Positions 62 to 5,505 of a DNA stretch of 7,626 nucleotides are shown here, piece after piece. Where the stretch lies: the IMG/VR virus record IMGVR_UViG_2778261276_000006. One strand, given 5' to 3'. The notes below the pieces were generated by a model. It saw nothing but the letters and a program-made list of their open reading frames with translations, searched no databases and was not told where the DNA came from. Made by a program: the position numbers and the translations under genes. The number at the start of each line of letters is the position of its first letter. Position 1 is the stretch's first letter. This DNA comes from a virus. Its lineage: Duplodnaviria; Heunggongvirae; Uroviricota; Caudoviricetes.

Positions 62-349
62 AACCCCACCTCGCAGACAAAGCGGGTGTAAATTGAGGGA
101 ATACAACGTATCGCAAAAAAGCAGAAACGTAACAGACTCGGAGTCAGTGAATAACTCAGGTATTGAGTTATCAGCTAATATCGAGACTCAAAAAATGGAA
201 AAACCAGCTCGACGGCGGGTTTAAGCTGTGTGACGAAGTAACCACTCTTAACAGCATAACCAATTTTTTACGTACGTAAACCACTGAATGATATTTATGA
301 GAATGCTACCGAGTGTTCAAAACACCACCACAAATACATAAGAAAGCCT

Positions 350-370
350 CAACAAATAACCAACAAATAA
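350..370. repeat. Tandem direct repeat, 2 x CAACAAATAA separated by one C
   Basis: Read directly: caacaaataa at 350-359 and again at 361-370, in the AT-rich region upstream of the porin gene. Confidence 0.5.
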
Positions 371-650
371 TTTCCAGTGTTATTTTTAGCCGATTTAAAT
401 TGAACCTTCAAATTATAGAGCACTTATAAATAACAGCCGTTAATATAAATTGGCTAATAGATTTATTTTTATTCAGCCAAGAGCTATGAATAGGATTCGA
501 TAGAAAAAAGTTCAGATAAAAATAGAGATCTACTTCACAAATCAAACGAGAAACCAAAACTTACATCTTGAAATAATCACATTGATTAGATGAATATTTA
601 TCGCGCAGTGACATCATTTTTTAATAATAGTTCAAAAAAAAGGGCTCACG

Positions 651-1748
651 ATGAAAAAATTAACAGTGGCAATTTCTGCTGTAGCTGCATCAGTACTGAT
701 GGCGATGTCTGCTCAGGCAGCTGAAATTTATAATAAAGACAGTAACAAGCTGGATCTGTACGGGAAAGTTAATGCCAAGCACTACTTCTCCTCTAATGAT
801 GCAGATGATGGTGATACTACTTATGCCCGTCTTGGCTTCAAAGGTGAAACCCAAATCAACGATCAACTGACTGGTTTCGGTCAGTGGGAATATGAATTCA
901 AAGGCAACCGCGCTGAATCTCAAGGTTCCTCCAAAGACAAAACCCGTCTTGCATTTGCAGGCCTGAAATTCGGTGACTACGGCTCAATCGATTACGGCCG
1001 TAACTACGGTGTAGCATACGACATCGGTGCGTGGACTGACGTTCTGCCAGAATTCGGTGGCGATACCTGGACCCAAACAGATGTGTTCATGACTGGTCGC
1101 ACCACTGGTGTTGCAACCTATCGTAACAACGACTTCTTTGGTCTGGTTGATGGTCTGAACTTTGCTGCTCAGTACCAAGGCAAAAACGATCGTAGCGATT
1201 TCGATAACTACACTGAAGGTAACGGTGATGGCTTCGGTTTCTCTGCTACCTATGAATACGAAGGATTCGGTATCGGTGCAACTTATGCGAAATCTGATCG
1301 TACCGACACTCAAGTTAATGCAGGGAAAGTTCTTCCTGAAGTATTTGCTTCCGGTAAAAATGCAGAAGTTTGGGCCGCAGGTCTGAAATATGACGCTAAC
1401 AACATTTACCTGGCCACTACCTATTCTGAAACCCAGAATATGACTGTATTTGCTGATCACTTCGTTGCTAATAAAGCCCAAAACTTCGAAGCTGTTGCAC
1501 AATATCAGTTCGATTTCGGTCTGCGTCCGTCCGTTGCTTACCTGCAATCTAAAGGTAAAGATCTTGGAGTATGGGGCGATCAGGACTTAGTCAAATATGT
1601 TGATGTAGGTGCAACCTATTACTTCAACAAAAATATGTCTACTTTCGTTGATTACAAAATCAACCTGCTTGACAAAAATGACTTCACTAAAGCACTCGGT
1701 GTAAGCACTGATGACATCGTTGCTGTAGGTCTGGTTTACCAGTTCTAA
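651..1748 (+). CDS. nmpC: Outer-membrane general porin, prophage-encoded NmpC/Lc/OmpD family (365 aa, apparently intact)
   Basis: ATG start; signal peptide [23 protein letters not shown] with AQA-AE cleavage site; glycine/aromatic-rich beta-barrel composition; C-terminal ...VGLVYQF with terminal Phe typical of porins. Sequence recognised as NmpC/Lc-like. No IS interruption. Confidence 0.93.
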
Positions 1749-1764
1749 TCTGATTACGAAAAAG

Positions 1765-1798
1765 ATATGTTGCGGGAGGCGTTGCCTCCCCAACATAT
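1765..1798 (-). terminator. Hairpin with downstream U-tract on the minus strand; candidate tR'-like terminator downstream of Q (or a structural element of the porin 3' UTR)
   Basis: GC core gggaggc/gcctccc (1774-1780 / 1784-1790) extended by atatgttg/caacatat with one bulged C. On the minus strand it is followed by CTTTTTCG. It lies about 140 nt downstream of the quuD stop. Confidence 0.4.
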
Positions 1799-1886
1799 AA
1801 GTGGCTCCCTCAAGCCACTTCCTTTAGAAGCACAACCTTGCTTCTAACTATATAAACCTTCTGTTATATATTACCCTTTATTTTTG

Positions 1887-1915
1887 GGGGCGTCTCAACG
1901 CCCCATTTTTAATAA
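1887..1915 (+). terminator. Rho-independent terminator for the porin transcript
   Basis: Stem ggggcg (1887-1892) / cgcccc (1899-1904) with loop tctcaa, followed by atttttaataattttt on the plus strand. Confidence 0.6.
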
Positions 1916-1937: not shown

Positions 1938-2321
1938 TTAATTAGAGTTATTAACAACGATATCCATCTCTAACCGGATATCTAATGCCATTAACATCCC
2001 TTCAATTATGCCCTCAGCCTTCTGTAACCTTTTCCCGATATAACCATCAGAGCAGCAATGCTTACCTGCCAGTGACATGAATGTCATACCGACTACATAA
2101 TAATCTACTAATAAATCGTGCAAATCGCTGTTGTTCTTTTTCAGACGGGCCATGCACCCGCAAATGATCATCGCGTCATCGTCACAACATTGCGGGCGAG
2201 ATTTTACTTTTGAAGGAATTAATCCCTTAAAACCGGCGGCAATGGACGACCAGGTCACATCTTCATGATTATTAGCCGCCCACGCTCCCCAACGCTCAAG
2301 AACCATCTGAATATCACGCAT
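1938..2321 (-). CDS. quuD: Late-gene antiterminator Q (QuuD-like, 127 aa)
   Basis: ORF track protein from [11 protein letters not shown]... to ...VVNNSN recognised as DLP12 QuuD. I place the start at ATG 2321-2319, preceded by GGAG 7 nt upstream, rather than the TTG at 2336 used by the track. Confidence 0.9.
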
Positions 2322-4086: not shown

Positions 4087-5505
4087 ATGAAATATTTCTC
4101 AACTGGTTTTTATGTTTCAAACTCCACATCTCTAGCTGAGATCTTTAATGAATGTTTTTCTTGGGTAAACGACTCACCACATACAACTTTTATTCCAGCA
4201 CAATTAGTATGTGATTATAAAAGCGAGGAGTACTTCATAGAGTCTAAAAATGAAAGAATTGATATAATAAATTATAAAAACAAAGATACTAGTTTAGGCT
4301 GTTTTAGGTATTCGAAAATATCTGAGCCACACAAATGGGTAACAGATATTTCAATTAATAAAAATCTCAAAACTGATACCATGTGGATTCAGGTGGAATC
4401 TAGCGTTGTAAGCCAAGATGCAGCTTATCTAGCCCCGCAACCTAAGAAACCATTAGTTGTTATGAGATTGATTGATAAATTTCCTGGTGGTCTTGATGAT
4501 ATTTTCAAGGTGTCAGTCGAACCTCATTCCTTAGATGATACTGATGAACATTTAAATATAGCAGCTAAAGTTATAAATGGTGAAACTGACAACAGACTAC
4601 CAATAATATACGTTAGCTCCAAGTATTTTTTTAATGAACATGCTCACAATATCATCCCAGAACGCCTTGCAAGAAAGGTATGCGGATTAGCACATGTATT
4701 AATTGAGCCTAGCAATAGACTATTTTCTACTAAGCTAAAAAATGAGACAAATGCTAAAAATGCCTATGCTGGTGCTGTTGGTATCTATTGGCCACGGGGT
4801 CAAAATATCAGTTTTTATCGCCGTGGTGAGAAAACCGCAAAAGAATTTGAAGATGAGTTATTTGATGATGTTGTAAGAGCTACGACTACAATGGCTCCTG
4901 TCTCAGATAGTGGATGGAGTGAGATACAAACCAGAAAAACGAAAGACTCTATTAACTCACTCAAAGAAAGAGGAGAATACACACGCGAACTGATGGCGCT
5001 TTACGAAGCCGATAATGTTGCGAAAGATGACCAAATAGAAGATCTTAAGCATAAGATCTCCTCTTTAGAGCACAGAGTACGCACTCTTCAATCACAAGCT
5101 TCAGCCCAAGGAAGCATTGTGCTTAATGCTGGTGAAGAGACTGACTTTTTTGATGGAGAAATCAAAAATATAATTATTGACGCACTAAAAACTGCCATAA
5201 AAAATAAAAATGAATTTGGTAGAAGCTACCATAGCTTATCATCCCTAATTGCCAATAATGAATACAATAAAGAAACCGAGAGTCGCCGCCAATTACTTAA
5301 AAGGACTTTAACAGGTTACAGAAGCATGGATAGCGCAACACAAAGAAATTTAAAGGACTTAGGTTTCAGTGCGTCAAGCGATGGAAAACACTGGAAGTTA
5401 ACATATAATGAAGACCCTCGATATTCCTATATTTTACCTAAAACAGGAAGTGACCACAGAGGTTCTTTAAATGCTATCTCGGATATAGCAAACATTATTT
5501 TCTAA
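4087..5505 (+). CDS. Hypothetical protein, 472 aa, unassigned family; candidate prophage accessory / anti-phage defence gene
   Basis: Long uninterrupted ORF in AT-rich DNA, where stop codons are frequent. ATG with AAGGA SD 6 nt upstream. No signal peptide or obvious transmembrane segment, no Walker A motif. Central region predicted helical/coiled-coil (…EDLKHKISSLEHRVRTLQSQASAQ…). Followed by a hairpin terminator. Confidence 0.85.
   Translation: MKYFSTGFYVSNSTSLAEIFNECFSWVNDSPHTTFIPAQLVCDYKSEEYFIESKNERIDIINYKNKDTSLGCFRYSKISEPHKWVTDISINKNLKTDTMWIQVESSVVSQDAAYLAPQPKKPLVVMRLIDKFPGGLDDIFKVSVEPHSLDDTDEHLNIAAKVINGETDNRLPIIYVSSKYFFNEHAHNIIPERLARKVCGLAHVLIEPSNRLFSTKLKNETNAKNAYAGAVGIYWPRGQNISFYRRGEKTAKEFEDELFDDVVRATTTMAPVSDSGWSEIQTRKTKDSINSLKERGEYTRELMALYEADNVAKDDQIEDLKHKISSLEHRVRTLQSQASAQGSIVLNAGEETDFFDGEIKNIIIDALKTAIKNKNEFGRSYHSLSSLIANNEYNKETESRRQLLKRTLTGYRSMDSATQRNLKDLGFSASSDGKHWKLTYNEDPRYSYILPKTGSDHRGSLNAISDIANIIF

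Follow-up and report, generated by a model that had tools for sequence, protein, structure and literature searches.

The window analyzed here, meaning the whole stretch of 7,626 nucleotides taken from the Caudoviricetes virus record IMGVR_UViG_2778261276_000006, carries a porin gene of the nmpC/lc type within a lambdoid prophage, with the element under study placed directly 3' of the porin gene and with quuD, rusA, ybcN-like, and P genes as neighbors. The features relevant to our analysis are the following, by position and strand in the window:

225..650 (+), porin promoter and 5' leader region, ~99% identical to the upstream regions of PA-2 lc and MG1655 nmpC
651..1748 (+), intact Lc/NmpC-type porin gene, 365 aa (Pfam Porin_1, 1e-156; 363/365 identical to PA-2 Lc)
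1749..1915 (+), IpeX, the porin 3' UTR, 167 nt, as assigned by identity to K-12 DLP12 and PA-2 (fold z -10.1; covariance model 191.8 bits)
1765..1798 (+), SL1, a 15-bp hairpin with a bulged C and the loop GUU, which folds in every lineage
1799..1820 (+), SL2, an 8-bp hairpin with the loop CCCUCA at 1807-1812 (99.5% of cells paired; 2 pairs changed on both sides)
1824..1847 (+), SL3, a 9-bp hairpin (99.6% of cells paired; 3 pairs changed on both sides)
1855..1883 (+), conserved single-stranded stretch and proposed seed, with the core UGUUAUAUAUUACC at 1862-1875, in which the family alignment has its two longest invariant runs
1887..1910 (+), intrinsic terminator common to the porin mRNA and IpeX (consensus scan; hairpin kept in all lineages)
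1938..2321 (-), convergent late antiterminator gene quuD, a neighbor outside IpeX (Pfam Phage_antitermQ, 9.7e-54; positioned as quuD in MG1655)

By sequence, the plus-strand segment 1749-1915 is identified as IpeX, the 3' UTR of the prophage porin (lc/nmpC) mRNA. Alignment with K-12 ipeX returned 100% identity over all 167 nt (167/167) to MG1655 574362-574528, which runs from the nmpC stop to the terminator and separates nmpC from quuD in prophage DLP12, so that the K-12 RNA (Castillo-Keller et al. 2006; EcoCyc sRNA) and the one described here occupy the same place. The same 167 nt are also found downstream of lc in PA-2 (J02580.1, 2590-2756), again with 100% identity. Published papers describe IpeX as a 167-nt DLP12 RNA that is made from the porin promoter within the porin transcript, undergoes processing, and reduces OmpC and OmpF. 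The preliminary description of this DNA had proposed an IpeX-type sRNA of about 167 nt derived from the nmpC 3' region, lying in the roughly 165 nt between the porin stop and a plus-strand intrinsic terminator, and it was right on both counts, as the porin ORF (651..1748, +) ends with a TAA codon at 1746-1748 and the terminator stem spans 1887-1904. The element was already known, however, and that first finding is a correct identification and not a discovery. The similarity to PA-2 extends well beyond the UTR, with 99.1% identity between positions 1-1975 of the window and the PA-2 record; we found no difference of substance between the two, and the window can be described as a PA-2-like late region in a different prophage backbone. 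PA-2 is also the setting where, according to the literature, the natural transcript lowers OmpC. At gathering thresholds, no Rfam 15 family was reported for the IpeX copy of the window, and only chance-level matches appeared at E values up to 10; because even a 100% identical copy matches no family, Rfam appears to be without an IpeX model. In the NC_000913.3 RefSeq record, micF and micC are given as ncRNA features but no ipeX feature is present at 574362-574528, while EcoCyc counts ipeX among the sRNAs.

Upstream of the UTR, the PA-2 record annotates two CRP sites that correspond to roughly positions 225-245 and 521-541 of the window, and our scan of the plus strand between 651 and 1886 returned no promoter-like site and no terminator. 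The window is consistent with transcription of IpeX from the porin promoter and with its processing from the porin mRNA. In K-12, on the contrary, IS5B interrupts nmpC 58 nt short of the stop codon, at a position equivalent to 1690/1691 of the window, and the insertion cuts IpeX off from the porin promoter, whereas the porin gene of the window is whole. The preliminary description had regarded IpeX as silent in K-12 on account of this insertion; the insertion is there, but "silent" is too strong a word, as an RNA-seq study of K-12 lists IpeX among the differentially expressed sRNAs. It had also drawn attention to the intact porin gene seen here, and the gene is indeed complete, but such an arrangement is not special and represents the usual state in E. 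coli. The 167-nt IpeX is present in 2510 of 5426 complete E. coli genomes, and in 2256 of these 5426 (~42%) the porin 3' end and ipeX are uninterrupted, which makes the intact porin-IpeX state the rule among ipeX carriers. When the 3' coding ends of the porin genes were compared (window 1680-1748 and loci L086, L172, and L180), at least three clearly different versions were seen joined to nearly the same UTR; based on these, conservation is higher in the UTR (1749-1915) than in the final 60 nt of the porin coding sequence, and a mosaic boundary lies close to the stop codon.

The 167-nt RNA is predicted to fold with an energy of -62.9 kcal/mol, compared to -30.4 +/- 3.2 kcal/mol for dinucleotide shuffles (n=200; z = -10.1), and none of the 200 shuffles reached this value. 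An alignment of 26 distinct variants yielded a consensus fold made of SL1, SL2, SL3, and the terminator, and the same plan emerged in six lineages folded separately. The "long imperfect hairpin" noticed previously corresponds to SL1, with its 15 bp and single bulged C, but it is the first of three adjacent hairpins and does not stand alone. The outer helix of SL1 is 100% paired with 2 pairs changed on both sides, and in variant v16 most of the SL1 stem is replaced with pairing kept. The CCCUCA loop of SL2 was found in all lineages examined except E. albertii, where it reads CCCUUA. Standard pairs make up 98.9% of cells in the model-guided alignment, with changes on both sides at 10 pairs, while sliding the partners by 1-3 columns lowers the proportion of standard pairs to 41-51%. 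Because these compensatory changes come from only a few independent lineage splits, we regard them as supportive but not overwhelming. The covariance model built from the 26 variants scored the window at 191.8 bits over 1749-1910. The two invariant runs noted above for the 1855-1883 stretch are UGUUAU and UAUUACC, and SL2 is as conserved as this stretch. A fourth hairpin (1849-1870) appears in the minimum-energy fold; we rejected it as it is not conserved in related sequences, and the stretch is better read as single-stranded. In the lowest-energy fold of the window's own copy the seed is partly buried in a weak hairpin, while in the majority of lineage folds 1855-1883 is unpaired. The terminator stem (1887-1904) has 7 bp, 6 of them G-C, and a CUCA loop, and is followed by an A, by five U residues at 1906-1910, and then by AAUAA; a U-rich stretch, UUUAUUUUU, lies upstream. 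Such a short U tail suggests that this terminator is not a strong Hfq module.

What our analysis adds is a predicted match between this stretch and the ribosome-binding site of ompC. Nucleotides 107-121 of IpeX (1855-1869, AACCUUCUGUUAUAU) and positions -21 to -7 of ompC (AUAUAACAGAGGGUU) can form a contiguous 15-bp helix with one G-U pair that covers the Shine-Dalgarno, and nucleotides 127-135 (1875-1883) can form a colinear 9-bp helix with ompC -31 to -23. The computed duplex energy is -26.7 kcal/mol, a value obtained with the IpeX segment 96-140, which was picked after the match was seen, and which none of 1000 dinucleotide shuffles of either partner reached. The ompC region ranks 1st among 50 start regions, none of 6658 genomic 65-nt windows reaches -26.7 kcal/mol, and the opening costs amount to 4.65 kcal/mol for the seed and 4.98 kcal/mol. 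An unbiased best-helix test using the full IpeX against 190 nt of ompC gave 3/1000. Full-length duplex folding of IpeX with 190-nt targets was discarded, as it returned meaningless sums of many small helices, and a helix search and windowed folding were used instead. The longest perfect Watson-Crick run in the duplex, as derived from the helix, is 10 nt, and in our judgment the default BLAST word of 11 would for this reason miss the match. Further evidence came from the covariance model, which when run over 407 kb returned 16 weak matches outside the family, 14 of them antisense to ompC-type gene starts and driven by the same words. The exact 15-mer site recurs in 24 ompC-type start regions of other genera, with energies between -22.9 and -34.5 kcal/mol, and within E. 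coli, 5346 of 5371 genomes have the ompC site at 99% identity or more. The OmpD/NmpC-type relatives of the phage porin show background pairing (mean -12.9 kcal/mol), and the phage porin's own start region is a poor match for the seed.

With regard to the ompC leader, GAGGGUUAAU occurs twice in MG1655 (L289, -74 to -53 and -13 to -4), first within a 5' hairpin, on its loop side, and again at the ribosome-binding site. This hairpin has the loop UGAGGG, which is exactly complementary to the CCCUCA loop of SL2 (1807-1812), and UGAGGG is present in the ompF Shine-Dalgarno as well. Four ompC leaders of the Enterobacter group keep the UGAGGG loop while the stem covaries. A pairing between the SL2 loop and the ompC leader loop is a weak observation, made after the fact.

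Pairing with ompF is predicted to be more modest. Positions 1862-1878 of IpeX can pair with ompF -14 to +3 through 10 + 6 bp at -19.1 kcal/mol, a value equaled by approximately 10% of shuffles and falling in the top 1.8% of genomic windows. The start region of ompA gave -11.4 kcal/mol, and the computed order is thus ompC (-26.7), ompF (-19.1), and ompA (-11.4). Overexpression of ipeX reportedly leaves ompA unaffected, in keeping with this order, and the ompC leader is said to be required for the effect on ompC. It is also said that the ompC effect is Hfq-independent and the ompF effect Hfq-dependent; such a difference would be explained by a 24-bp duplex with ompC versus a shorter, interrupted duplex with ompF.

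Taken together, these predictions suggest that IpeX, the 3' end of the porin mRNA, is probably equipped with a conserved seed that would occlude the ompC ribosome-binding site as an ordinary antisense. According to this model, SL1-SL3 would form a stable 5' body, and the unpaired stretch at 1855-1883, just before the terminator, would act as the antisense seed, pairing with the ompC mRNA from -31 to -7 across the Shine-Dalgarno and blocking ribosome binding, while the overlapping part at 1862-1878 would pair with ompF. The phage would in this manner append a MicC-like and a MicF-like activity to the 3' end of its own porin mRNA, and the lysogen would thereby swap host porins for the phage porin. 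On balance we also favor the broader proposal that IpeX may be a phage-borne, combined mimic of MicC and MicF, with a seed that would occlude the ribosome-binding sites of both ompC and ompF, and that it would belong to a family found on porin genes of lambdoid and P1-like phages, in which the seed would have been retuned toward ompC in the lambdoid type and toward ompF in the P7 type.

Our model is at odds with reviews that deny any base pairing of IpeX with ompC or ompF and state that complementary sequences do not exist, and it is conceivable, if rather unlikely, that IpeX acts through its hairpins by titrating an RNA-binding protein, or indirectly through envelope-stress sRNAs. Besides the reviews, the conservation of SL2, equal to that of the seed, could mark a protein site, and one paper calls IpeX Hfq-independent, even though published papers disagree on its Hfq dependence. 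The match of 15 + 9 bp with the ribosome-binding site of ompC, however, contradicts the negative claim, is unequaled by shuffles or genomic windows, and was found blindly by the covariance model as well; furthermore, we identified no protein-binding motif in IpeX. None of the papers covered by our broad literature search reported an IpeX duplex.

Two other explanations would place the native function outside of antisense regulation altogether. The stacked hairpins and the terminator sit between two convergent genes, a different convergent moron (blc) is found in another phage at the same spot after Q, and in clinical isolates OmpC levels are not tracked by ipeX expression, all of which would agree with a purely cis-acting element that stabilizes the 3' end and shields the porin gene from transcription units on its convergent Q side, its effect in trans being an artifact of multicopy expression. 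We consider this very unlikely. Chromosomal porins of the same family terminate with UTRs of 20-45 nt, and the 140-nt structured addition is consequently not needed for termination; moreover, the most conserved part of IpeX is the unpaired seed, and OmpC is reportedly lowered when PA-2 makes its lc transcript. Least credible, and to us barely worth entertaining, is a function on the minus strand, either as a late promoter or Q-utilization site after quuD or as ORF1 of the PA-2 record (1587..1796, -), an ORF being annotated here in both the PA-2 and the 434 records. A late promoter does normally follow Q genes, but our scan of the minus strand from 1749 to 1937 returned no promoter-like or terminator-like site, and the Q stop and the end of IpeX are just 22 nt apart. 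As a protein-coding gene, ORF1 was rejected, since it measures 4, 12, 37, 43, or 69 codons across lineages and has no Pfam match.

If the antisense reading of IpeX is correct, the closest functional parallels would be the host sRNAs MicC and MicF. The predicted MicC site in the ompC leader (-30 to -15) falls within that of IpeX (-31 to -7), with comparable energies (-25.1 versus -26.7 kcal/mol for overlapping sites in the same calculation), and the two RNAs have the words UUAUAU and CCUUUAUU in common. MicC differs, however, in having its seed at the 5' end, its own promoter, and Hfq dependence, while the IpeX seed is internal, precedes an mRNA terminator, and extends over the Shine-Dalgarno. 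MicF, similarly to IpeX, targets the ompF start region, and its 12-mer UUAUUUAUUACC equals the P7-type seed and is one base off the seed of the window; its duplex with ompF is nonetheless longer (-29.6 kcal/mol) than the modest one computed for the IpeX studied here. CpxQ and SdhX are sRNAs derived from 3' UTRs. IpeX resembles them in its terminator, common with the upstream mRNA, in a seed located in the last 60 nt, and in being reportedly processed from a longer transcript, but unlike them it is phage-borne and would target host competitors of its own gene product.

The conserved core was found downstream of the porin gene in all 159 phage-contig porin loci examined (159/159), whereas in chromosomal porin loci of 69 other species an IpeX homologue was seen in only 2, both of them prophage copies (E. 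coli and E. albertii); behind chromosomal OmpD-like porins, the UTR is short (20-45 nt) and ends in a plain terminator. We rejected the possibility that IpeX is a REP-type dispersed palindrome, as it occupies a median of one place per genome, with a maximum of three, all adjoining porin genes; one tool-based survey has entered ipeX as REP-containing. A homologue with approximately 73% identity lies behind nmpC in the P1-like phage P7, in phage JL22, and in 116 plasmids, and the P7 and JL22 records annotate no RNA feature at the nmpC 3' UTR. This P7-type UTR has the same order of elements (SL1, SL2 with the CCCUCA loop, SL3, seed, and terminator) and scores 138 bits in the family model, but it carries an extra 19 nt before the terminator and a seed that appears tuned to ompF (-23.4 to -26.1 kcal/mol); taken as a group, P7-type seed homologues pair best with ompF, at -23.4 to -27.2 kcal/mol. 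A second viral scan with the P7 porin as the query yielded no new lineage. On the E. fergusonii plasmid pRHB18-C04_2 (L288, 1500-1671), a P7-type UTR retains SL1-SL3 and the seed, while the spacer and terminator are replaced by the hairpin GGGCGCCAUUAUGGCGCC; here the cassette is carried by an IncI1 conjugative plasmid and not by a P1-like one.

Since 2006 the mode of action of IpeX has been left as "not base pairing", and the ompC match offers a simple and directly testable mechanism. If true, the antisense-seed reading would overturn that standing description, and IpeX would no longer be an exception among porin-regulating sRNAs. As the element itself is known, the added value of our analysis is this specific, testable antisense mechanism together with the finding that the family has a P1-like branch, whose P7-type members suggest that the same device travels on phage-plasmids. 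Given that ~42% of complete E. coli genomes carry an uninterrupted porin-IpeX cassette, phage control of host porins might be widespread, which bears on the permeability of the outer membrane to antibiotics. OmpC is moreover the receptor of PA-2 and several other phages, and the cassette thus bears on receptor availability.

The surroundings of the porin-IpeX cassette also deserve a comment. Phage Lambda_ev203 (L291, 1802-2860) has a Q gene that shares 88% identity with quuD, and at the same insertion point behind it stands a convergent lipocalin gene, blc, in place of the porin-IpeX cassette. It therefore seems that inverted accessory genes can land at the site after Q, and the late promoter is probably located beyond the moron. 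A terminator-like hairpin (8 bp, 3 of them G-C) on the minus strand at 1959-1982, inside the quuD 3' end, is probably a chance match. Farther along the window, a 472-codon ORF at 4087-5505 (+) runs in an orientation opposite to that of the flanking nin-region and replication genes. This ORF has no Pfam match and shows a weak PADLOC match to the candidate defense protein HEC-07 (1.2e-9), and the equivalent part of the prophage in other strains is occupied by ybcK/ybcL/ybcM, by DUF7946, or by HD plus DUF4041; the region looks like a variable accessory or defense slot.
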